The notes beneath the pieces are model-generated. The model worked only from the letters and a program-made list of their open reading frames with translations. It was not told the origin of the DNA and did no database searches. This document shows, piece by piece, positions 31,186 through 52,675 of a stretch of 64,000 nucleotides of DNA. The translations under genes and the position numbers were made by a program. The DNA comes from Bacteroidales bacterium (GTDB lineage Bacteria > Bacteroidota > Bacteroidia > Bacteroidales > UBA1715). Location: the NCBI GenBank assembly GCA_031286165.1, contig JAITUU010000019.1:6730-70729 (forward strand). Reading direction: 5' to 3'. Every line of letters starts with the position of its first letter. Within the stretch, counting starts at the first letter, position 1.

Positions 31186-31579
31186 GGGGGTGACTGGAAT
31201 TGACGGGGAGTTGATTATTGATGTAAGCATGTCGGGCAATCAAGATTTTGACCCGTAAAAACATATCTTGAAACAATAACTGGCGAAAATACTTACGCTC
31301 TTGCTGCCTAATCGAATCATAGTAGATTAACGCTTTACGCTGTTCAAGGAACAGTGGCAGGACATTCCGCAAATGGCAAGTCCTTAGTCGTTTGAATCCG
31401 GAGTGCTGTAATTAAGGAATAGCGCACAATGTGTTTGGAGTTGTGCGTAAAATTTACAAACTAAGGAAAAAGTAGAGTGCCTGTTTTCGGCTTTTTCCCT
31501 ACAATCAACAACACGGCTACACATGTAGAAAGCATTGGTAATGCTTGTTCGGACCGGGGTTCGATTCCCCGCACCTCCA
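31186..31579 (+). ncRNA. ssrA: tmRNA; tag peptide GENTYALAA* at 31282-31311
   Basis: 5' GGGGGTG pairs with 3' CACCTCC-A; T-arm GGGGTTCGATTCCCC; tag ORF GGC GAA AAT ACT TAC GCT CTT GCT GCC TAA. Confidence 0.95.
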
Positions 31580-31580
31580 C
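31556..31580 (+). repeat. attL core (3' end of tmRNA)
   Basis: GGGGTTCGATTCCCCGCACCTCCAC, identical to 52651-52675. Confidence 0.92.
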
Positions 31581-31687: not shown

Positions 31688-32878
31688 ATGCCCACACCTC
31701 AAAAAAATCAAGAGCGCGGCGCAATAGTGAGTGATTTGTACGGCTACACTCCTGCCGTACTCAAAGAATATGCCGACTATTGGTGCATAGAATACTATGT
31801 GAAGCATCCGGTAACGCACAAACTTACGCGCCGGAGAGAAAAAGTAAGCGCTTATAGAACGCGCTACGGCGTGCGCGAGGCACGGAATTTACTGCGAGTG
31901 GCAGTTAGCCGCTTGAATTTAAAATTGTCGCAAGGCTGGAATCCGTATTTTGTGCATGAAGACGGTCGCCTACTTGAACCGCTGCACATGGTTATACATA
32001 AATTTTTGGCGGAAAAAGAACGCGATTTACGCCCGAATACACTGCGTTCATACAAAAGCATGGTAGGCAAAGAACTGCGCGAATGGGCGCAAAAGAATTA
32101 TCCCACAATTACCGCTTCCACATTTACACGAAATATTGCCGTGCGCTATATGGATTTTATTCTGGCAAAAGGAGTGAGTAATACTTCATACAACAATACA
32201 AAAAAAATGATGAGTGCCTTTTTTAGTTGGTGCGTGGAAAAATGCTACGCAAAAGAAAATCCGTTTGCGCACATAAAACCAAAGAGAAAAGAACAAAAAC
32301 GCCGCATATTGGTTCCTGCCGAAGTACGAGAGCAAATTACCACTTATTTACAAGAAAACAAAAATATTGGTATGCAAATAGCCGTAAATTTGGTGTATCA
32401 AAGTCTTTTGCGCCCCAAAGAAATAAATGAAATTCAACTCAAACACATTCATTTGAGCGACAAATATATACTTGTGCCGGCTACGGTGGCAAAAAATCAC
32501 AACGAACGAAAAGCAACACTGAGCGATGCCACAATAGAACTACTGCAAAGATTGAAGATTGAAACATTACCGAAGGAATATTACTTACTCGGCGGCAATT
32601 CCAACCAACAAAGTTTACTGCCCCACGCTATACAATCGAATACGCAACGAATTTCTAAAAATTGGGATAGCATGCGAAAAAAACTAAATTTTCCCAAAGA
32701 AATGCAACTATACAGTTTGCGCGATACCGGCATAACCGATTTGCTCAAAAAAGGAATAGACCCACTTACGGTAATGCAGCACGCCGACCACCATTCGCTG
32801 GAAATGACCACAAAATACGCAAAACATATTGATACGGGATTGGTGCAGAAGATGAATAAAGTACTGCCGGATTTCTAA
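31688..32878 (+). CDS. Tyrosine recombinase/integrase
   Basis: Catalytic R (LLRPKEI), K (AKNH), YSLRDTG, ADHHS, TTKY; lies ~110 bp from attL. Confidence 0.92.
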   Translation: MPTPQKNQERGAIVSDLYGYTPAVLKEYADYWCIEYYVKHPVTHKLTRRREKVSAYRTRYGVREARNLLRVAVSRLNLKLSQGWNPYFVHEDGRLLEPLHMVIHKFLAEKERDLRPNTLRSYKSMVGKELREWAQKNYPTITASTFTRNIAVRYMDFILAKGVSNTSYNNTKKMMSAFFSWCVEKCYAKENPFAHIKPKRKEQKRRILVPAEVREQITTYLQENKNIGMQIAVNLVYQSLLRPKEINEIQLKHIHLSDKYILVPATVAKNHNERKATLSDATIELLQRLKIETLPKEYYLLGGNSNQQSLLPHAIQSNTQRISKNWDSMRKKLNFPKEMQLYSLRDTGITDLLKKGIDPLTVMQHADHHSLEMTTKYAKHIDTGLVQKMNKVLPDF

Positions 32879-35206: not shown

Positions 35207-35503
35207 TTATTTGTATTTTATGCGGTGTTCGCAATTCATATTTTTGCAGGCTTTGCCTTTGAAAAATTGCACTTCTTTTTCAATCTCTTCTATGCGTATT
35301 TCCCACTTTTTGTCGCGTGCTATCATTTCGTTGCGCAGGCTTTCGAGGGCGTATTGATAGGTTTCGGCAATGGTTTTGTAGGTTTCGTTTATGGCACGCT
35401 CGGTTTCGGCTTTTTGCTTGCGCATACCAAAAAAGTAACTTACCACTCCGCTCGCCGCTGCCGTTGCGCCCAAAACTCCTATATGTACTTCTTCAAAAGT
35501 CAT
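35207..35503 (-). CDS. Holin-like protein (N-terminal TM + coiled coil)
   Basis: TM IGVLGATAAASGVVSYFF, coiled coil, C-terminal CxxxxC; late-operon position. Confidence 0.45.
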   Translation of the reverse strand: MTFEEVHIGVLGATAAASGVVSYFFGMRKQKAETERAINETYKTIAETYQYALESLRNEMIARDKKWEIRIEEIEKEVQFFKGKACKNMNCEHRIKYK

Positions 35504-35514
35504 AGTTTGATTTT

Positions 35515-36651
35515 TTAGAAAATTCGTATGTACGGCACGTCAAATTGTTGCACAGTGCCGGGAAATGATTGGGCGATATATGATTGTAAGTTCATTGTAC
35601 CGCCGCCGTATGCCGTTGGTGGTGCAATTTCACTACCGGCAATAACGGTTTGCAGTACATTCGTGGAATTGGGAATTTCGCTTTTTATGCGTTTTGCAGC
35701 CAAGTATCGTGCGCTTGTGTGGTCTATAAACAGTACGGCATAGTATTTTTGCTCGGCATACAATAAAACTTCGTCTTCAAAATCGGCAGTAATAGCGCAC
35801 GGTTCGCTACGAGAAAGATAACCAATAAGCGTTTTGCGAACAAAAGTCATGTTCCAATCGTAAATCGCCACACGAAAGTTACCGCCGGTGTGATTTGTTT
35901 GTACGCAAATTTGCGCTTGTTTCACGGTAGTATCTACGGCAGGAATTACCATAACACCCACAAAACCGGGATTAAAATTTTGTGCACCCTCGCACAGTGC
36001 AAAGGGAAAACTTTCGATAGGTGCGGAACTGCCATTGCTTATGCAAGTTTGCTCACCACCAAGCGAAATAGTTTTTATTTTGTTCCATGTACGCACTTTG
36101 ATTTTTGGCGTTTCACCGTCCATAAAGAGCGACATTGTTTCTTCCATGAGATTATCATCGTCCGTTTCTTTCGCACTGTGAATAAAAGATTGCCCGGTAA
36201 GAAAATAATGATTGTCTGCATTAATTCTCAAATTAATAGCATTGGCGGAACCCTGCTCAGAAAATGTTCCGTTGTAATTTTTATACAAACAATTTCGGTC
36301 GGTAAGGCGGAAAAATTGAAAAGGATACCCGTATGTTCTTTGTTCGTGATTATATACAATCAATTCGTTATTTCTCACTTGCAGTATATCAAAACCGTTT
36401 TCCCGCTTCAAATGCAATCCGTTGCGCGAAATAGAAAGCCATTTTTTATACTCATTTCCCCATTCGTTTGCCTCATATTTCGCAAATTCTTCGGGATTTT
36501 CGCGTTTCAATTCCCCCAATTCTACAATCACATGTCCACTGCCTTCTATGGCAAGCGGTGGTGTGCTATTGTTTTGCGCTGCGGTATCGCCGCCAACAAT
36601 ATCAAGCAAACCGGTTTGCGGATTAATCGTTGTTTCGTAATCAAAACTCAT
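35515..36651 (-). CDS. Putative spike/receptor-binding protein
   Basis: N-terminal INPQTGLLDIVG anchor-like motif, beta-rich body, C-terminal sandwich-like domain (NFRVAIYD, QKYYAVLF). Confidence 0.5.
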   Translation of the reverse strand: MSFDYETTINPQTGLLDIVGGDTAAQNNSTPPLAIEGSGHVIVELGELKRENPEEFAKYEANEWGNEYKKWLSISRNGLHLKRENGFDILQVRNNELIVYNHEQRTYGYPFQFFRLTDRNCLYKNYNGTFSEQGSANAINLRINADNHYFLTGQSFIHSAKETDDDNLMEETMSLFMDGETPKIKVRTWNKIKTISLGGEQTCISNGSSAPIESFPFALCEGAQNFNPGFVGVMVIPAVDTTVKQAQICVQTNHTGGNFRVAIYDWNMTFVRKTLIGYLSRSEPCAITADFEDEVLLYAEQKYYAVLFIDHTSARYLAAKRIKSEIPNSTNVLQTVIAGSEIAPPTAYGGGTMNLQSYIAQSFPGTVQQFDVPYIRIF

Positions 36652-36940: not shown

Positions 36941-37549
36941 TTATGCAAGTGTGTAGCCTTTTTGTGCTACCCATTTGGTAATATAGTTTTTAAAAGAACC
37001 TACGGTAATAGCACCGGTAGCATCTTGGAATATTGCATTTTGCTGTGCTACTTTACTGCCGGGCGCAGCTATTATGTAACTTTCGGCTTTGCCCATTGCT
37101 GCAGGGTAGAATACTGCCAAATACACATCGGTAAAGCAATTCATTTTACCTTTATAGGTATTCAGGTATTTATACACGTAATCCAACTGTTGCACATTGG
37201 TCATGGCGCATAGTGCATCGCAGGTGGTGCCAAGTGCATTTGCTGTTTTGGGCATAAATTGAATCAATCCGGTGGCTCCACCTGTGGGATTCACAGCGCG
37301 GTGGTTCAATCGGCTTTCCATAGCCATTACCGCCATAAGCCAATCACCTTTAATGCCCAAAGAACCACAAATAGAGTGCACTTTTTGCAAAAAAGCCTCT
37401 TTGTTTTCGGTAACGTAGTTTTCAAAAATCATGACTGTATGTTTTATTGTTTTGCGAAATACACACACGAGCAAAACCAATAACGCTGCGCATAGAGCAA
37501 CGGCGGTTATAAGCAGTTTCTTTTCGCCTATCGGTATTTTTAGGTTCAT
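36941..37549 (-). CDS. Lytic transglycosylase (SLT/lysozyme-like) with N-terminal TM
   Basis: WLMAVMAMES (catalytic Glu), GATGLIQFMPKTA, QLDYVYKY, YLAVFYP. Confidence 0.85.
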   Translation of the reverse strand: MNLKIPIGEKKLLITAVALCAALLVLLVCVFRKTIKHTVMIFENYVTENKEAFLQKVHSICGSLGIKGDWLMAVMAMESRLNHRAVNPTGGATGLIQFMPKTANALGTTCDALCAMTNVQQLDYVYKYLNTYKGKMNCFTDVYLAVFYPAAMGKAESYIIAAPGSKVAQQNAIFQDATGAITVGSFKNYITKWVAQKGYTLA

Positions 37550-37707
37550 TACTGTATCATTTTATTGCCCACAATGAGAATAACACCCACCAAAAGCAAG
37601 GCACCGGCAAGCATACAAATACTTGTTGTTTCTATTGCTACCGGTACTTCGGGCAGCCGACCGTCTTTGATGTCGGCTACTAATTTTGAGTTTAAAAGGT
37701 CATTCAT
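37549..37707 (-). CDS. 52-aa membrane protein missed by the ORF track
   Basis: MNDLLNSKLVADIKDGRLPEVPVAIETTSICMLAGALLLVGVILIVGNKMIQ*; fills the gap exactly, with TAATG coupling to the transglycosylase. Confidence 0.7.
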   Translation of the reverse strand: MNDLLNSKLVADIKDGRLPEVPVAIETTSICMLAGALLLVGVILIVGNKMIQ

Positions 37708-37708
37708 G

Positions 37709-38032
37709 TTATTTTACGTATTGGTCAAATTGTGCTTTGGTAAATTCTTTGGTATTGTAATATTTCACAAGTGCCGCTTCGGTAAGTGGTCCAAAATCAC
37801 CATCAACAACCAAACTCGCTCCTTTACTATTCAAGTGCGTTTGCAATTTTGACACGTTGTCGCTATTCATTACTCCGTTTTTAAGCGGAAAATCGTTGGC
37901 GGTGGAAGAAGAAGTTCCTATACCGGGCACTCTGCTTTGCCCTTGTGATTTTTTACCTTGCACTATAATAATTGCCGCTACTATGGCTGCAATTACTACT
38001 GCTATCAAAATATATTTCGTTGTTTTTGTCAT
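37709..38032 (-). CDS. Membrane-anchored peptidoglycan-binding domain protein
   Basis: N-terminal TM; VSKLQTHLN...LVVDGDFGPLTEAAL (PG_binding_1 motif). Confidence 0.8.
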   Translation of the reverse strand: MTKTTKYILIAVVIAAIVAAIIIVQGKKSQGQSRVPGIGTSSSTANDFPLKNGVMNSDNVSKLQTHLNSKGASLVVDGDFGPLTEAALVKYYNTKEFTKAQFDQYVK

Positions 38033-38044
38033 AATTGAAAGTTT

Positions 38045-38494
38045 TTAAAGTGATACGTTTATTGATTTTAAAATAAAATTGAGTTCTTGCATTTCGCCGC
38101 TACTGAGTTCGGTGGGGAGTAGTTCCGGTAGGTTGCCTTTGTAATTACCCACAAAGAATAAACCTGAATTGACTTCTTTAATGCCAAACACATCTACCAA
38201 GCGCAGCCAATCCGATTTTGTTTTCATTTTTCGGGCTACATTGTAAATTGCCTCTACATTAGTACCTATGCCGTCCATAGCGTTAAATATGGTGGCTGCC
38301 ATATCGCGGTATTCAACATCGGAATAACTGAGGTCATTTTTATTAATTTCGCTTTTGCGCTCGCTCTCACGATTTTTTGAGAGAAACCATTCCTGAATTT
38401 TTGGTTTCAGAAACGTATATCCTACGTATGCCACTATTACTACAATAGTTACGAGAATGATTTTTTGCAATCGAGGGTCTAAATTTTTTAACAT
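38045..38494 (-). CDS. Membrane-anchored protein with a single annexin-like repeat
   Basis: N-terminal TM; MAATIFNAMDGIGTNVEAIYNV...LPELLPTELSSGE resembles annexin AxxLxxAMKGxGTDE...LxSELSG. Confidence 0.55.
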   Translation of the reverse strand: MLKNLDPRLQKIILVTIVVIVAYVGYTFLKPKIQEWFLSKNRESERKSEINKNDLSYSDVEYRDMAATIFNAMDGIGTNVEAIYNVARKMKTKSDWLRLVDVFGIKEVNSGLFFVGNYKGNLPELLPTELSSGEMQELNFILKSINVSL

Positions 38495-38500
38495 AGTTTT

Positions 38501-38803
38501 TTATTTTTTCATTTTCATAAACACAACACCTCCGCCGATTGCGAGCACTACCACCGCAATAATTATTACAATCATGATAGAATTACTTCCTTCGCTCTTG
38601 TTGTCATTATTATTTCCTCCGGCTCCGGCTTTTGCAAGTAATGCCATTTGCTGTATTTGCATTTCGGCTATTCTTTCATTTGACGCTGCTACCGCTGCAT
38701 TTCCAGCTGCGGTTGTTTTTGCAGCCTTATTATTTGCTATGCCAGCCACTACTGTACTTCCTAAGTCGCCTACACATGATATTATTGGTCCTAAATCAAA
38801 CAT
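38501..38803 (-). CDS. Tail-anchored membrane protein, putative virion protein
   Basis: Amphipathic N-terminus, Ala-rich helix, C-terminal TM VVVLAIGGGVVF + MKMKK. Confidence 0.65.
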   Translation of the reverse strand: MFDLGPIISCVGDLGSTVVAGIANNKAAKTTAAGNAAVAASNERIAEMQIQQMALLAKAGAGGNNNDNKSEGSNSIMIVIIIAVVVLAIGGGVVFMKMKK

Positions 38804-38808
38804 AATTC

Positions 38809-39540
38809 TTAATTTTTAAATTTGTTGTACATATACACTCCTCCAATTCCTATTGCAATAACCGCAACTACTATCACTATCGGCAGCATACTGCTTTGTT
38901 GTTGCGTTTTGCTATTGGCTGCAGCATCTCTTAGTGCTGCTTCCTCTTCCAATTTTTTGATATATTGTAGTTCGGCTTTGGTTTGAAGCACACTACTTTC
39001 TACCTCACGTTCGCTTTGTTTCGCCGCTTCTTTTTCTGCGGAGGCAAGTGCTTTGGCTGTTTTGTTTTGCTTTATGCCTTTTACAAGACTGCCGGTAATA
39101 GAAACCGCCGCAGAAACGCCTGCTGTTATCAGTCCTATAAATTCGTGAATATTCGCATTATTCGGAATTTTCGTATCAAACACCTGACGCAGCACCGATG
39201 TATTATCGTTATCGGTAGAAAGTGCCGTTTGTAGCAATTCTTCGCCGCGTGCTATTTGTTGTTTGGTAGTAAATGGCAGACTTTTATAATATGCTTTCAA
39301 AATATCTACCGTATCATCGCCAAGTTCTAAACATCGCCAAAACGCCCATCTATCCGCAAGCATTTCGTTATCTTCGGCAGCGTTCAAATGTCCCAATTCA
39401 TGAGCAATAACAAATTTTTTGCCCATTTCACTGAGTTTATTCCACGCCGCCGGATTTATGTACAGTACGGCAGTATTCAAATCAACCGCTGCCGGTCCGT
39501 TAATCCACGAAACTTCTTGTGTGGAAGAAAATAATTTCAT
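38809..39540 (-). CDS. Zincin-like (HEXXH) metallopeptidase fused to coiled coil and C-terminal TM; start re-called at MKLFSS
   Basis: LYIN...FVIAHELGH...EMLADRWA; C-terminal TM IAIGIGGVYMY + NKFKN. Confidence 0.7.
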   Translation of the reverse strand: MKLFSSTQEVSWINGPAAVDLNTAVLYINPAAWNKLSEMGKKFVIAHELGHLNAAEDNEMLADRWAFWRCLELGDDTVDILKAYYKSLPFTTKQQIARGEELLQTALSTDNDNTSVLRQVFDTKIPNNANIHEFIGLITAGVSAAVSITGSLVKGIKQNKTAKALASAEKEAAKQSEREVESSVLQTKAELQYIKKLEEEAALRDAAANSKTQQQSSMLPIVIVVAVIAIGIGGVYMYNKFKN

Positions 39541-39545
39541 AGTGG

Positions 39546-39716
39546 TTATGATTGTTTCATTACTTGTGATGCTTTTTTCAAGCATATACTCATCTGCACT
39601 TTATGTACTTTTTTTGCCGGAATGGTTTTGTAACCAGCTTTGTTTTGAATGTCCTGAGCAAGTTTCATGAGGCGTTTTGCTCTATTTTGCGCCGCTTTTT
39701 GTTTTAAAGATGCCAT
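39546..39716 (-). CDS. 56-aa basic protein missed by the ORF track, putative DNA-binding core protein
   Basis: MASLKQKAAQNRAKRLMKLAQDIQNKAGYKTIPAKKVHKVQMSICLKKASQVMKQS*; fits the operon spacing. Confidence 0.65.
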   Translation of the reverse strand: MASLKQKAAQNRAKRLMKLAQDIQNKAGYKTIPAKKVHKVQMSICLKKASQVMKQS

Positions 39717-40881: not shown

Positions 40882-41550
40882 TTAAATTAAGCCGGTTGCT
40901 ATTGCATTTTCCAACTGTGTTACTTGGCTCATGCGGTCATCGAAGTAAAATACCAAACTCACTTTTGCGCCCGCTTGCACTTTGTACAAAAACACACGGT
41001 CTTTGCCCAATACAAGGGTATCGTTTGAAAAATCTACCGATACACGAGTTTGATCGTTTTCCGTTTCCGATTTTGATGCGCTTGGTGTGCGTGTAATAAT
41101 TTGTTTTGGGCGGTGTGGACCAAGTTCGTACACTTGAAGAGCCTCATCGAGTTGGTCGGTTTTTTTACACATCACTCGCACACCTTTAATACGGCATGGA
41201 GTTTCGATAAAGGTTTTGCGAATATCAATCACATTGGCACCTTGTCCGCTTGCTGTTACGGCAGTAGAAGTAGAGGTTGCTGAAATAAATATACCATCGT
41301 CCACAATGCCGGTAACTTTTTCGGAAAAGTCCTTCATTTGCGATGCTTTTTCGTAGTATCCTTCACTGATTGCCACGAATTGGTCCACCGGTGCTTTTCC
41401 ATCGGATGCCGGAGCGGCATTATCTATTACTAAGGTTACGCTTTCTCCCGAAAAAGGATTTACATAACCATTTTGATTGCCGGCATAACCCTTAATTCCA
41501 AGTTGTCGGCGTGCTCGTTGTTGCGGAGTTTCATTTTCTAAAAATTCCAT
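40882..41550 (-). CDS. Candidate major capsid protein (beta-sandwich/jelly-roll type)
   Basis: Only sizeable soluble all-beta-looking protein at the head of the structural operon (SVTLVIDN, RIKGVRV, LQVYEL, VSVDF, VFLYKV, VSLVFYF); no HK97 motifs. Confidence 0.55.
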   Translation of the reverse strand: MEFLENETPQQRARRQLGIKGYAGNQNGYVNPFSGESVTLVIDNAAPASDGKAPVDQFVAISEGYYEKASQMKDFSEKVTGIVDDGIFISATSTSTAVTASGQGANVIDIRKTFIETPCRIKGVRVMCKKTDQLDEALQVYELGPHRPKQIITRTPSASKSETENDQTRVSVDFSNDTLVLGKDRVFLYKVQAGAKVSLVFYFDDRMSQVTQLENAIATGLI

Positions 41551-43332: not shown

Positions 43333-43890
43333 TTATTCTGTTGTAATGTGGATTTTTGCGTAGGGATTTTTGAGTGCTTGTGTGCGCACTGTATTCACTG
43401 CGGTTTCTAATTTTTGAAGTATGTGTGGCGGTATCCATGCTTTGCGCAGGCGCGGTTCGTCCATAGTATTGAACAATACATAATCGGTAATGTAAGTAAA
43501 TAATGCCGGTGGAATATCGCGGAAGCCATGAGCAACAAACACAATATCGAGCATCATCTTTCGGCTCACTATAATAATTTTTTTCAATGCCGAATGGTCG
43601 AAATTGCTACCAATGTAAGCGCGTGGGTCGTCGAGAACCAACACGGCATCGTGCAGGTGTTTATAAATTGCCACAAAATCGGTTTCATTTTCATATACCC
43701 GGCAGCGCACGCCGGTATAATCAAAATCTTTTCGCGCCCGGCACTTACATTCGGGAAGTTTATCCGCCCAATCGTCCCACGTGGGCACAACAAAAAGTGC
43801 ACGTTTGCCTATACAAGCAACTGCTTCGGCAAAGGTAGATTTTCCGCAACCACGCACGCCCAGCAATAGCATAATTTTAGTTTTTCGCAT
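43333..43890 (-). CDS. FtsK/HerA-superfamily (A32/P9-like) ATPase, putative genome packaging motor; start re-called at MRKTKI
   Basis: Walker A GVRGCGKST, Walker B VLVLDD, Arg-finger region SRKMMLDIVFVAH; 185 aa with no nuclease domain. Confidence 0.75.
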   Translation of the reverse strand: MRKTKIMLLLGVRGCGKSTFAEAVACIGKRALFVVPTWDDWADKLPECKCRARKDFDYTGVRCRVYENETDFVAIYKHLHDAVLVLDDPRAYIGSNFDHSALKKIIIVSRKMMLDIVFVAHGFRDIPPALFTYITDYVLFNTMDEPRLRKAWIPPHILQKLETAVNTVRTQALKNPYAKIHITTE

Positions 43891-44440
43891 TGGTTTCTTT
43901 CTCTTGTAATTGTTTTCGCAACGCATCTATTTCCATATCTTTTTGCATACCGCGCATTTGTTCTTCTTCCAATTTTCGTTGTGTTGCGCGGTATTTCACG
44001 GCAGTACTGATTTTTAAACCATAAATAAACACCGTAGAAATAGTGGCATTGACCCACGGCGGTACCGGTTTGTTTTCGGGCAACACTTGCGCCCATGCGT
44101 TGGTAAGTTCTTCGAGTTCTTCGGCATCGGCAGCCTCGTAGCCTTCGCGTATAATCATACCCATAATAAAGGTCATGAGCCGGTCGCCGTTTTTTACGAG
44201 TATTTGCGCGGTGGTTTTGTTTACCGCCGCATTAATTTTTTGGCGCACGGCAGTAGGCACATCGCTCAGTTCCTCGCCGCTGTCTTCGGGTTGGTTATAC
44301 ACTTGCTTTTCCTCTTGCAGGTCTTGCAGCAAAGTATCGGCTTCGGTGTAGTCGCTCACTGTGCCGGTTTCAAATGTGTATTCGGATTCCGCCGCCGGTG
44401 TATCTAATACTTCGGCTGGTACAAATTCTTCAAAATTCAT
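43877..44440 (-). CDS. Hypothetical protein with acidic N-terminus, hydrophobic segment and coiled coil (possible packaging accessory)
   Basis: PVPPWVNATISTVFIYGL hydrophobic helix; overlaps the ATPase start. Confidence 0.6.
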   Translation of the reverse strand: MNFEEFVPAEVLDTPAAESEYTFETGTVSDYTEADTLLQDLQEEKQVYNQPEDSGEELSDVPTAVRQKINAAVNKTTAQILVKNGDRLMTFIMGMIIREGYEAADAEELEELTNAWAQVLPENKPVPPWVNATISTVFIYGLKISTAVKYRATQRKLEEEQMRGMQKDMEIDALRKQLQEKETNAKN

Positions 44441-52650: not shown

Positions 52651-52675
52651 GGGGTTCGATTCCCCGCACCTCCAC
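52651..52675 (+). repeat. attR core (duplicated tmRNA 3' end)
   Basis: Identical to 31556-31580. Confidence 0.92.

Follow-up and report, generated by a model that had tools for sequence, protein, structure and literature searches.

Annexins are textbook eukaryotic proteins, which are linked to calcium and membranes. In reviews, the prokaryotic annexins are still treated as an open category (PMC10882027). The 2014 survey of Kodavali et al. counted about 30 bacterial annexins in 17 species, none of them in viruses, and phages are not mentioned there (PMC3894181). It lists short annexins in Bacteroidetes (Cytophaga hutchinsonii, Marinilabilia salmonicolor JCM 21150) and short adjacent annexin pairs in Kordia algicida, Aquimarina agarilytica and Flavobacteriaceae HQM9 (PMC3894181). 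Thus, short Bacteroidetes annexins have already been known since 2014, without any viral link. When we looked for phage or viral annexins in the searchable literature, we found only papers on annexin-V staining.

Internal-membrane phages of the PRD1 type employ a set of membrane proteins for genome delivery (P7, which is a lytic transglycosylase, P14, P11, P18 and P32). These proteins are encoded in the late operon between the capsid and the spike genes and are used to cross the envelope. We know of no annexin-type or PG_binding partner described for PRD1 and, to our knowledge, the step at which two bilayers are joined is poorly understood outside PRD1 and PM2. Phage spanins are represented by Rz/Rz1 and by the unimolecular gp11 of T1.

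The gene analyzed here (ANX) is located in a window of 64,000 nucleotides, which is the whole stretch of DNA under study. It is an open reading frame on the minus strand, which starts with ATG and reads MLKNLDPRLQKIILVTIVVIVAYVGYTFLK...DMAATIFNAMDGIGTNVEAIYNV...LPELLPTELSSGEMQELNFILKSINVSL. The N-terminal transmembrane segment and the motifs quoted in a preliminary description, which gave no strand, are present in this 149-aa reading frame. The operon is tightly packed around ANX, with the upstream gene 6 nt and the next gene 12 nt away. The following features were assigned to the gene:

38045 to 38494, minus strand: ANX gene, coding for a 149-aa membrane-anchored protein with a single annexin-type repeat (ORF and translation, homology, AF2 model)
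38408 to 38461, minus strand: N-terminal transmembrane helix, about aa 12-29 (hydropathy, AF2 model)
38066 to 38320, minus strand: annexin-type repeat, aa 59-143 (AF2 secondary structure, hhalign, Foldseek)
38261 to 38278, minus strand: endonexin motif of the AB loop, M73-D-G75-I-G77-T78 (conservation, alignment with annexin MKGFGT)
38135 to 38182, minus strand: beta-hairpin insert, aa 105-120, separating helix C from helix D (model strands, hhalign gap)
38108 to 38110, minus strand: GAA codon for E129 within TELSSGE; this residue closes helix D and is the predicted acidic cap (codon, conservation, alignment)

The hydrophobic N-terminal helix (residues 11-29, approximately) has a Kyte-Doolittle value of 2.26 over 19 aa. 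An N-terminal anchor (hydropathy score of at least 1.6) was common to 128 of the 138 relatives on which the ANX profile and our conservation counts rest. In the AF2 model, the anchor runs on as charged juxtamembrane helix to aa 49 and residues 7-49 form a single continuous helix. The C-terminal flank of the anchor was richer in K/R than the N-terminal flank in 110 of 138 members (positive-inside rule). This heuristic was dropped as topology evidence since the PG-binding and SLT controls gave the same pattern, and it is therefore uninformative on the topology of ANX.

Sequence comparisons indicate that ANX is a true but divergent single annexin repeat. With the Pfam Annexin HMM (PF00191; gathering score 25 bits), neither ANX nor three close homologs yielded a match at E ≤ 10, and scans of ANX against NCBIfam and PHROGs gave nothing meaningful. 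When the single ANX sequence was searched against PDB with phmmer, annexin VI and A8 ranked first (E 0.03-0.06). A 4-sequence profile raised this signal to E-values down to 1e-10, and 44 of its 45 PDB matches were annexins. For the 138-sequence profile, we obtained 83 PDB matches, and among the matches listed 60 of 60 were annexins or annexin A2 fusions; here, the best E-value was 1.5e-25 and annexin A2 was aligned over 61 residues. Alignment of ANX with the four repeats of fly annexin B10 by hhalign gave a probability of 96.9% (E 2e-10, 65 columns, aa 63-139). Pfam Annexin itself was matched at E ≤ 0.01 by 28 of the 138 relatives (best 6.4e-6). The family profile also found four giant multi-repeat proteins (P0006, P0007, P0019, P0053), for which the Pfam Annexin E-values ranged from 1e-17 to 1e-51. 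Since ANX is tied to PF00191 only via profile-level searches and via 28 of 138 relatives, the Pfam HMM alone would mislead: the preliminary description had suggested it as a check, and this check would have wrongly dismissed a true annexin homology.

The AF2 model calculated from the 138 sequences (pLDDT 95.0) predicts the five-helix (A-E) fold of an annexin repeat, with helix A at 59-73, B at 80-89, C at 93-103, D at 122-129 and E at 132-143. It replaced an earlier 4-sequence model, in which residues 105-125 were poor and the Foldseek matches were partial. When the final model was compared with PDB by Foldseek, 50 of the 50 matches listed were annexins or annexin A2 fusion chimeras. The probabilities reached 0.99 over 81-95 columns, but the E-values were 0.15 or worse. 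Thus, the preliminary annexin-repeat call is borne out by profile homology, by the predicted helices A-E and by the conserved G-x-G-T and acidic cap, and structure prediction also returned the five-helix fold it had expected. One repeat is present per ANX chain, and the four-repeat (or eight-repeat) core of eukaryotic-type annexins is absent from it.

Among the 138 relatives, the AB-loop motif was well conserved (M in 108, G75 in 126, G77 in 126, T78 in 128 with Ser in 5 more). The family consensus continues after T78 with D/N and then E, and ANX itself reads T78-N-V. Position 74 is Asp/Asn in the ANX family, whereas eukaryotic annexins carry Lys. The X residue of G-X-G-T remains hydrophobic or aromatic in the family, which is a trait of membrane-binding annexins (PMC3894181). 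Residue 129 is acidic in 135 of the 138 relatives (E in 119, D in 16), and hhalign pairs E129 with the Glu that serves as cap within SELGGKFE of annexin B10 repeat 1. Taken together, G-x-G-T and the acidic cap are about 91-98% conserved in the family. A conserved and aligned candidate for the distal acidic cap postulated earlier is therefore present, but E129 lies 51 residues past T78 and not at the canonical spacing of 39. This shift is due to the beta-hairpin inserted between helices C and D. In the AF2 model, its strands comprise residues 106-108 and 118-120; the insert is 11-16 residues long and the annexin template shows an 11-residue gap at this position (hhalign). The hairpin carries conserved aromatic residues (W/F113 in 87 and F/Y118 in 81 of 138 relatives). 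Since G75, G77, T78 and the acidic cap are near-invariant across relatives with about 30% identity, a retained Ca2+ site can be argued, and the loop and E129 are predicted to form a Ca2+ site of type II.

Compared with eukaryotic annexins (A5, A8, A6, B10; PF00191), ANX shares the predicted five-helix repeat, the G-x-G-T(D/E) of the AB loop, a predicted acidic cap that closes helix D and the hydrophobic X in the loop. In contrast, the eukaryotic proteins have a four-repeat core and are soluble and peripheral, whereas ANX combines one repeat with an integral membrane anchor, the 11-16-residue insert, a cap at +51 and Asp/Asn for Lys before the first Gly. Its setting also differs, being extracytoplasmic or viral.

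ANX lies in a 21.1-kb element (31581-52675), which is integrated at the tmRNA gene (31186-31580). The following features of this element were assigned:

31556 to 31580, no strand assigned: attL, first copy of an exact 25-bp repeat, located at the tmRNA 3' end (exact 25-mer)
52651 to 52675, no strand assigned: attR, second copy of the 25-bp repeat (exact 25-mer)
31688 to 32878, plus strand: tyrosine integrase of the element (Pfam Phage_integrase 8e-18; phrog_1 1.7e-37)
36941 to 37549, minus strand: SLT, 202-aa N-terminally anchored lytic transglycosylase (Pfam SLT 1.2e-8; phrog_196 6e-32)
37549 to 37707, minus strand: 52-aa membrane protein with a single TM, encoded between PGB and SLT (ORF and TM)
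37709 to 38032, minus strand: PGB, 107-aa protein with N-terminal anchor and PG_binding_1-type domain (Pfam PG_binding_1 E 1.5e-4; PHROG endolysin families)
38501 to 38803, minus strand: 100-aa membrane protein with tail anchor, next gene upstream of ANX (ORF and C-terminal TM)
38809 to 39585, minus strand: 258-aa HEXXH metalloprotease-like protein with C-terminal anchor (HELGH motif; weak Peptidase_M78/M56 matches)
40882 to 41550, minus strand: CAP, 222-aa capsid-protein candidate (homologs collinear with ANX in 19 loci)
43333 to 43926, minus strand: 197-aa Walker-A/B ATPase, packaging-type candidate (GVRGCGKST motif)

PGB is the immediate downstream neighbour of ANX. The 52-aa membrane protein is conserved in another locus (L004, 73% identity), in which the 100-aa tail-anchored protein also has a homolog. 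In addition, the element carries a primase-helicase and a fibre-like gene, and 11 of its 19 late-operon ORFs contain a TM helix. The CAP candidate has few homologs and matched neither the family libraries nor PDB sequences including solved capsids; for the 197-aa ATPase, the PDB search gave P-loop noise only. PHROG and Pfam scans of the element returned no tailed-phage hallmarks. No terminase, portal or tail families were among the 25 PHROG matches listed for 108 flanking proteins, and TerL families had no match in any of 12 carrier genomes or records. The ORFs beside ANX (37549-38803) are all single-pass TM proteins, and scanning them for a lipobox by eye revealed no lipoprotein candidates. 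We are apparently dealing with a small, integrase-bearing, tail-less virus-like element. Internal-membrane tail-less phages (PRD1/PM2/FLiP-type) are marked by a jelly-roll capsid protein, a small packaging ATPase, numerous small membrane proteins and the lack of terminase, portal and tail genes. The element has a small Walker ATPase and 11 of 19 late ORFs with TM, and its CAP, which has no sequence match to solved structures, is a capsid candidate. The viral-membrane setting assumed in the preliminary description agrees with this integrated element and its many single-pass membrane proteins. A conjugative element was also considered. No VirB4/VirD4-size ATPase, relaxase or Tra gene was found in the 21 kb; a capsid candidate and a fibre-like gene are present and the conjugative reading is therefore less likely.

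The ANX family comprises 1310 clusters at 50% identity. Its carriers make up 9 of 401 genomes of the phylum, and this sporadic spread fits a mobile or viral gene. The gene order ATPase-CAP-HEXXH-ANX-PGB, then often SLT, is collinear in 19 loci, which span Bacteroidales, Paludibacteraceae, Prevotella, Flavobacteriaceae, Edaphocola and Mangrovibacterium. Homologs of the HEXXH protein are collinear with ANX in 20 loci, ATPase homologs are located upstream of CAP in 7, and a PGB homolog adjoins ANX in 28 of 46. SLT homologs adjoin ANX in 10 loci including the second ANX copy of the source genome, which is part of a different element and lies between a fibre-like gene and SLT. The recurrent neighbour annotations are limited to PG_binding, GH108, SLT, lysozyme and M15, which are PHROG endolysin families. 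Fused forms were also observed: TM, annexin and PG_binding occur in a single chain in one IMG/VR protein (L001), and P0077 is a CHAP + annexin fusion. Two-repeat TM-anchored members (L035, L037) adjoin TM-PG_binding genes. As ANX occupies a collinear place between CAP/protease and PGB/SLT in 19 loci, it falls inside the morphogenetic module and, judged from gene order, it is a core gene of this module in virus-like elements of diverse Bacteroidota. The PG_binding and CHAP fusions, together with the PG-binding partner and the usual hydrolase, would place the action of ANX in the cell envelope.

When three family members were searched by tblastn against 50,697 GenBank phage records, no match was obtained. 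In BFVD, the ANX fold recurs in two viral proteins without annotation, and one of these relatives sits within an 801-aa protein labelled as coming from a tailed phage. Because of this relative and of the second copy in another element, the domain is not tied to membrane-containing virions. An annexin repeat had been called unusual in a prokaryotic virus. This holds for the searchable literature with its lack of viral annexins, but it has to be qualified in view of the sequences, where we see a large family and the two BFVD proteins, and some short Bacteroidetes members were listed in 2014 (PMC3894181). The short Bacteroidetes annexins of that survey resemble ANX in their single repeat, GxGTD-type motif, often predicted TM helix and origin from Bacteroidota, and the adjacent pairs have counterparts in adjacent ANX paralogs at three loci (L031, L034, L036). 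Unlike the surveyed set (PMC3894181), the ANX family has 1310 clusters, belongs to the core genes of integrated virus-like elements and is coupled to PG-binding/hydrolase genes, and its branch has the C-D beta-hairpin and escapes the Pfam model.

We propose that ANX is the arm that binds phospholipids in a calcium-dependent manner within a membrane-anchored complex for crossing the envelope. This complex would most likely be virion-associated, and we assign a probability of about 0.45 to this reading. ANX, the translationally coupled TM-anchored PGB and the TM-anchored SLT would form an envelope-acting membrane complex, one arm of which would hold and cut the cell wall. The annexin arm would use Ca2+, plentiful outside the cytoplasm, as a bridge to acidic phospholipid head groups in a second membrane, and would thereby draw two bilayers together. 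The anchor would most likely reside in the internal membrane of the virion and the complex would serve genome delivery, so that after local wall digestion the viral membrane might dock to and fuse with the host membrane. Like this module, the PRD1 delivery proteins are small single-pass membrane proteins including a membrane-bound lytic transglycosylase; no sequence relationship between the two was detected. A more far-reaching version appears doubtful to us: annexin repeats might be a standard virion part in tail-less Bacteroidota viruses with an internal membrane, which would form a large lineage not yet described, and the repeats would act there as Ca2+ fusion switch. The annexin would be silent during assembly in the low-Ca2+ cytoplasm and would become active in the envelope, clamping the viral to the host membrane and driving fusion for genome delivery. 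If this were true, most 'bacterial annexins' of Bacteroidota would have to be counted as viral genes, and annexin repeats could have travelled between bacteria and eukaryotes by way of viruses.

A role in lysis or egress, which we consider unlikely, would place ANX in the host inner membrane with a periplasmic annexin domain, which grips the inner leaflet of the outer membrane via Ca2+ after the wall has been cut. In variants of this reading, ANX would bridge the membranes like a spanin or regulate the adjoining hydrolase in the manner of a holin/antiholin. A peptidoglycan hydrolase is usually located within a few genes of ANX and its family varies (SLT, GH108, GH24 lysozyme, M15), which is a signature of lysis cassettes; further neighbours resemble other hydrolase types by sequence motifs only. 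Moreover, several loci have ordinary lysis genes (soluble endolysin, 2-TM holin-like protein, lipoprotein) directly after ANX, as in L034 with a soluble GH108, a 2-TM holin-like protein and a lipoprotein, and a lysis role is equally compatible with this gene order. In size and N-terminal anchor, i-spanins and class III holins resemble ANX, and spanins in general share with it the small size, the N-terminal inner-membrane anchor, a nearby hydrolase and the proposed membrane-to-membrane bridging. However, ANX is collinear in 19 loci within the morphogenetic module, and where separate holin-like and lipoprotein genes exist, an extra holin or spanin is unnecessary. In the AF2 model, a linker of about 20 residues carries the repeat, which is compact and globular, and a long coiled coil, as needed to bridge the periplasm, is absent. 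Neither a coiled-coil or extended domain nor an outer-membrane lipoprotein partner was found in the ANX model and its neighbours and, unlike the lipid anchor of spanins, the contact of ANX with the second membrane would be a Ca2+/phospholipid site. Alternatively, the repeat might organize or select acidic lipids for the inner membrane of the virion, or link this membrane to the capsid, without any role in entry or lysis. ANX as core gene beside the CAP candidate, the protease and the ATPase would suit such an assembly function, and annexins cluster acidic lipids and shape membranes (PMC10882027). A C-flank richer in K/R, counted in 110 of 138 members, is a weak hint of a domain in the cytoplasm that faces the capsid, but the PG-binding and SLT controls behaved no differently under this heuristic. 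The PG_binding/CHAP fusions and the PG-binding partner put the domain at the peptidoglycan and not in the cytoplasm. Cytoplasmic free Ca2+ is also too low for classical annexin binding, and we judge a pure assembly role to be quite improbable.

It is very unlikely, in our opinion, that the fold was kept while its lipid function was lost. ANX would then be a structural adaptor for PGB, the hydrolase or peptidoglycan, and its loop would bind a stabilising metal or nothing. The single repeat without four-repeat core and the Asp/Asn at position 74 instead of the usual Lys are compatible with this idea, and proteins or glycans could be bound by the surface of the hairpin insert with its conserved aromatics. 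On the other hand, G75, G77, T78 and the acidic cap stay near-invariant at about 30% identity, and the X residue is hydrophobic or aromatic as in membrane-binding annexins (PMC3894181). Finally, ANX might be a helical membrane protein with a G-x-G-T-like motif that resembles annexins by chance, as the silence of Pfam Annexin, NCBIfam and PHROGs and the poor Foldseek E-values (0.15 or worse) could suggest. This reading is effectively refuted by the annexin-restricted profile hits (E 1e-25), the hhalign probability of 96.9% over the whole repeat, the Pfam Annexin matches of 28 relatives and of each of the four multi-repeat proteins, and the five-helix model with its pLDDT of 95.

These data add four points. 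The family of short membrane-anchored annexins is large, and it mostly escapes Pfam; the annexin is a fixed gene of virus-like elements, and it is wired to wall-binding and wall-cutting partners. ANX is thus a candidate for the factor that joins two bilayers in prokaryotic viruses with a membrane, or in their lysis systems. For biophysics, it may serve as a minimal annexin, with one repeat of about 90 residues. Cultured carriers in which the elements could be induced are Edaphocola aurantiacus H2, whose locus (L083) has the full module, Marinilabilia salmonicolor JCM 21150, M. rubra WTE16 and Ancylomarina sp. DW003. Relatives of ANX occur, among other taxa, in Marinilabilia, Flavobacteriaceae and Paludibacter, and M. 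salmonicolor JCM 21150, a species already listed in PMC3894181, carries a full-length one (L073, E 5e-18).

The annexin-type gene belongs to a long minus-strand operon, where it starts 6 nt after the gene of a 100-aa tail-anchored protein and ends 12 nt before that of a 107-aa TM-anchored PG-binding protein.

38045-38494, minus strand: ORF of the membrane-anchored annexin-type protein, 149 codons, ATG start

Hydropathy analysis indicated a strongly hydrophobic stretch at about residues 11-29, and the N-terminal TM segment and all strings quoted in the preliminary description, which lacked the strand, are present in the translation. A topology prediction by K/R counting was discarded; the PG-binding protein and the TM-anchored lytic transglycosylase (SLT), used as controls, gave the same picture, so that such counts are useless here.

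The preliminary description had also claimed an annexin-like repeat. When we scanned the protein and its three close homologs with the Pfam Annexin HMM (hmmscan), no match was obtained at E<=10, and nothing was found for the protein in PHROGs and NCBIfam. The annexin call was supported by reverse profile searches, by hhalign and by a five-helix model. For the single sequence, the top matches among all PDB chains were annexin VI and A8 (phmmer), with AATIFNAMDGIGTNVEAIYNV aligned to AETLYKAMKGIGTNEQAIIDV of the annexin. A profile of four close homologs matched annexins in 44 of 45 PDB hits (E to 1e-10). With a 138-sequence family profile we obtained 83 PDB matches and among those listed, 60/60 were annexins or annexin A2 fusions; the best E-values were 1.5e-25 (annexin VI) and 5e-15 (A8), and annexin A2 was aligned across 61 residues, which is a whole repeat. 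Pfam Annexin was matched individually by 28 of these 138 members (best 6.4e-6). The family profile also found four multi-repeat proteins (P0006, P0007, P0019, P0053) at E 1e-18 to 1e-55; Pfam Annexin in turn recognises these four at 1e-17 to 1e-51. In hhalign, the family was aligned from helix A to helix E with the four repeats of fly annexin B10 (96.9% probability, E 2e-10, 65 columns), the sole gap being 11 residues in the annexin, opposite the family insert. At the level of sequence, we consider the reverse searches decisive for the identification of the protein as an annexin repeat. When 1.84 billion cluster representatives were searched exhaustively with a profile, 1310 family proteins reached E<=1e-3 and 420 reached E<=1e-10; almost all of the 1310 comprise 135-170 aa and have the same anchor-plus-domain layout. 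The 138 sequences of the family profile were drawn from this set.

An AlphaFold model computed from four sequences was of low certainty at residues 105-125. The model obtained from the 138-sequence alignment reached a mean pLDDT of 95.0 and a pTM of 0.77, and it involves the following elements:

aa 7-49: long helix, TM segment plus charged juxtamembrane stalk
aa 59-73, 80-89, 93-103, 122-129 and 132-143: helices A, B, C, D and E
aa 106-108 and 118-120: beta-hairpin between helices C and D

The five annexin helices are all present in the model, and the lack of a five-helix fold, which was to count against the annexin proposal, was not observed. All 50 PDB matches listed by Foldseek were annexins or annexin A2 fusion chimeras (probability up to 0.99, 81-95 columns). 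Their E-values were 0.15 or worse, as expected when about 90 residues with a long TM helix attached are compared with four-repeat proteins.

GxGTD is the annexin hallmark, in which a role has been ascribed to the hydrophobic X residue (PMC3894181), and type II Ca2+ sites have been described (PMC10882027). The corresponding positions are strongly conserved.

Conservation of the predicted Ca2+ site in 138 relatives (about 25-40% identical to the protein of the window)
A72: same residue in 130
M73: same residue in 108
G75: same residue in 126
G77: same residue in 126
X of G-X-G-T: hydrophobic or aromatic in most
T78: T in 128, S in 5
Position 79: D in 90, N in 24
Position 80: E in 81
E129: E in 119, D in 16 (acidic in 135)

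In the hhalign alignment with annexin B10, E129 stands opposite the Glu that is the canonical cap in SELGGKFE. This predicted cap, the E of TELSSGE, is located 51 residues past the Thr rather than the usual 39 because the hairpin intervenes. Whereas eukaryotic annexins carry a Lys before the first Gly, the family has Asp or Asn there, and it further differs from them by an invariant Asp95, by Arg or Lys at position 106 (132/138) and by the hairpin with its conserved aromatics (W/F113, F/Y118). The repeat carries an intact-looking predicted Ca2+ site.

The operon is part of a 21.1-kb insert, which is bracketed by 25-bp repeats at a tmRNA gene (3' end at 31580).

31556-31580 and 52651-52675: exact 25-bp direct repeat, the last 25 bases of the tmRNA gene and their copy
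31688-32878: tyrosine integrase, first gene of the insert

The insert also encodes a 927-aa primase-helicase-like protein and a 197-aa Walker ATPase, and 11 of the 19 ORFs of its late operon have a TM helix. PHROG and Pfam scans of the insert gave no ORF matching terminase, portal, HK97 capsid or tail families. The 222-aa capsid-protein candidate (40882-41550) has few homologs and no PDB sequence match.

In close metagenome relatives (56% identity) the entire gene order is kept. More distant relatives retain the core. At the locus of P0154 the order is annexin-type gene, 75-aa gene, PG_binding, 58-aa gene and SLT, and in P0155 the annexin-type gene immediately precedes Peptidase_M15_3. Among the ten nearest genes at each of 17 loci, the recurrent Pfam families were PG_binding_3 (6), PG_binding_1 (4), GH108 (3), SLT (3), Phage_lysozyme2 (3), Phage_lysozyme and M15_3, and no other family recurred; PHROG matches of the neighbours were mostly endolysin families. 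A scan of genome collections added 80 further loci, and partners were counted by searching iteratively with the proteins encoded in the window.

Homologs of partner proteins at 46 loci having a short family member
TM-anchored PG-binding protein: 28
HEXXH metalloprotease-like protein: 20
Capsid candidate: 19
SLT: 10
ATPase: 7

All 19 capsid-candidate loci (L004, L061, L063, L083, L086 and 14 others, from Bacteroidota genomes and MAGs) share the collinear order (ATPase), capsid candidate of 196-258 aa, HEXXH protein, annexin-type protein, PG-binding protein, (SLT), and the PG-binding gene mostly starts within a few bases of the annexin-type stop codon. This recurring module defines a family of small virus-like elements that are apparently tail-less. 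Named hosts include Bacteroidales, Paludibacteraceae, Prevotella, Bacteroides, Flavobacteriaceae, Edaphocola and Mangrovibacterium, and Edaphocola aurantiacus H2 (L083) is the cultured carrier of the full module. Of 401 genomes sampled from the whole phylum, only 9 contain the family. Terminase_6N and TerL_ATPase were absent from nine carrier genomes and from three IMG/VR records, in which controls were detected. The annexin-type gene thus belongs to the core genes of a separate group of small integrated elements that apparently have no tail. Contigs with the module were also present in MAGs named Desulfobulbus, Firmicutes CAG:95, Azospirillum CAG:239, Saccharibacteria and Clostridium (L062, L067, L069, L072, L079). 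Since L067, L069 and L079 are near-copies of Prevotella and Paludibacteraceae loci, this suggests mis-binned viral contigs.

The domain is also fused to wall-directed modules. L001 (IMG/VR, 392 aa) combines a TM segment, an annexin-type repeat (i-E 1e-14) and a C-terminal PG_binding-like domain (i-E 3e-12), and P0077 joins CHAP to the repeat and is free of a TM helix. In L035 and L037 a TM segment is followed by two canonical-looking repeats lacking the hairpin, and a TM-PG_binding protein is encoded next. Because of this repeated fusion or coupling to wall-binding and wall-cutting modules, the domain must, as we read these arrangements, work in the envelope, where the wall is and divalent cations are plentiful.

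The protein is a member of a morphogenetic module and an obligatory partner of TM-anchored PG-binding and PG-cutting proteins. These may form a three-armed, membrane-anchored complex that crosses the envelope, in which SLT would cut the wall, the PG-binding protein would hold it and the annexin arm would attach, by way of a Ca2+ bridge, to phospholipids in another bilayer. With an integral anchor at one end and a predicted peripheral lipid binder at the other, the protein would be built for joining two membranes. We rank first a complex of the virion membrane that serves genome delivery (probability about 45%), because the gene is collinear with those of the capsid candidate, the protease and the ATPase. 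It is rather unlikely that the protein acts in lysis, bridging the inner to the outer membrane once the wall is digested; a role in assembly or lipid sorting seems more doubtful, and a non-lipid adaptor is the least probable of these options. The family makes a membrane-apposition step of prokaryotic virus biology directly testable. Caution is advisable, since the domain is probably not strictly tied to internal-membrane virions: the source genome has a second copy in a different element (L010 5247-5702, contig C19, 23% identical), flanked by a fibre-like and a TM-SLT gene, and an 801-aa relative in BFVD is labelled Caudovirales.

Part of the family has already been filed as bacterial annexins. 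The list of Kodavali et al. (2014; PMC3894181) has about 30 of these, among them short TM-bearing annexins, adjacent pairs from flavobacteria and, separately, Marinilabilia salmonicolor JCM 21150. According to these authors viruses yielded no annexins, and the term phage appears nowhere in their text. We recovered the same kind of adjacent pairs (L031, L034, L036), which in 2014 were without viral context, and a full-length relative in M. salmonicolor JCM 21150. New are the size of the family, the fact that Pfam largely misses it, the variant with a hairpin, the core-gene status in virus-like elements, the invariant partners that bind or cut the wall, and the fusions.

The tandem genes of L031, L034 and L036 (G203, G095) encode 131-167 and 140-141 aa and are followed by a TM-PG_binding or other TM protein and then by the gene of a soluble GH108-like protein or of another hydrolase-like product; L034 continues with a 2-TM holin-like and a lipoprotein-like gene. 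Two viral UniProt proteins of BFVD, both unannotated, share the fold (Foldseek probability 1.00): A0A345N3H1 (154 aa) matches the window's annexin-type protein in size and layout, and A0A6J5RF64 (801 aa, labelled uncultured Caudovirales phage) is 33% identical over 88 columns. The giant proteins P0006 (2562 aa), P0007 (1208 aa), P0019 and P0053, the best multi-repeat profile matches, contain 3-10 annexin repeats, which match the family full-length and share its specific features S/T-Q-x-D/E-W and a C-terminal L..GI; some multi-repeat giants also have eukaryote-type WW, CUE or HALZ domains. In L003 (11342-15898; IMG/VR UViG_3300043539_001475, 101 kb) the annexin-type gene is closely followed by a tandem array of at least seven paralogs, whose products have an N-terminal anchor, STG/TVQ low-complexity repeats and, in most, the conserved C-terminal motif ...QANALGYKILPYGEI. 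When we compared L010 2060-6931 with window 35207-36651, the last 171 residues of a 900-aa protein upstream of the L010 copy were 88% identical to the window's 378-aa fibre-like protein, and the next 92-aa TM protein was 75% identical to that of window 35207-35503. This looks like a receptor-binding cassette swapped between two elements of one genome. In the same L010 region, the copy precedes the TM-SLT gene and a lipoprotein-like 196-aa gene (phrog_14010).
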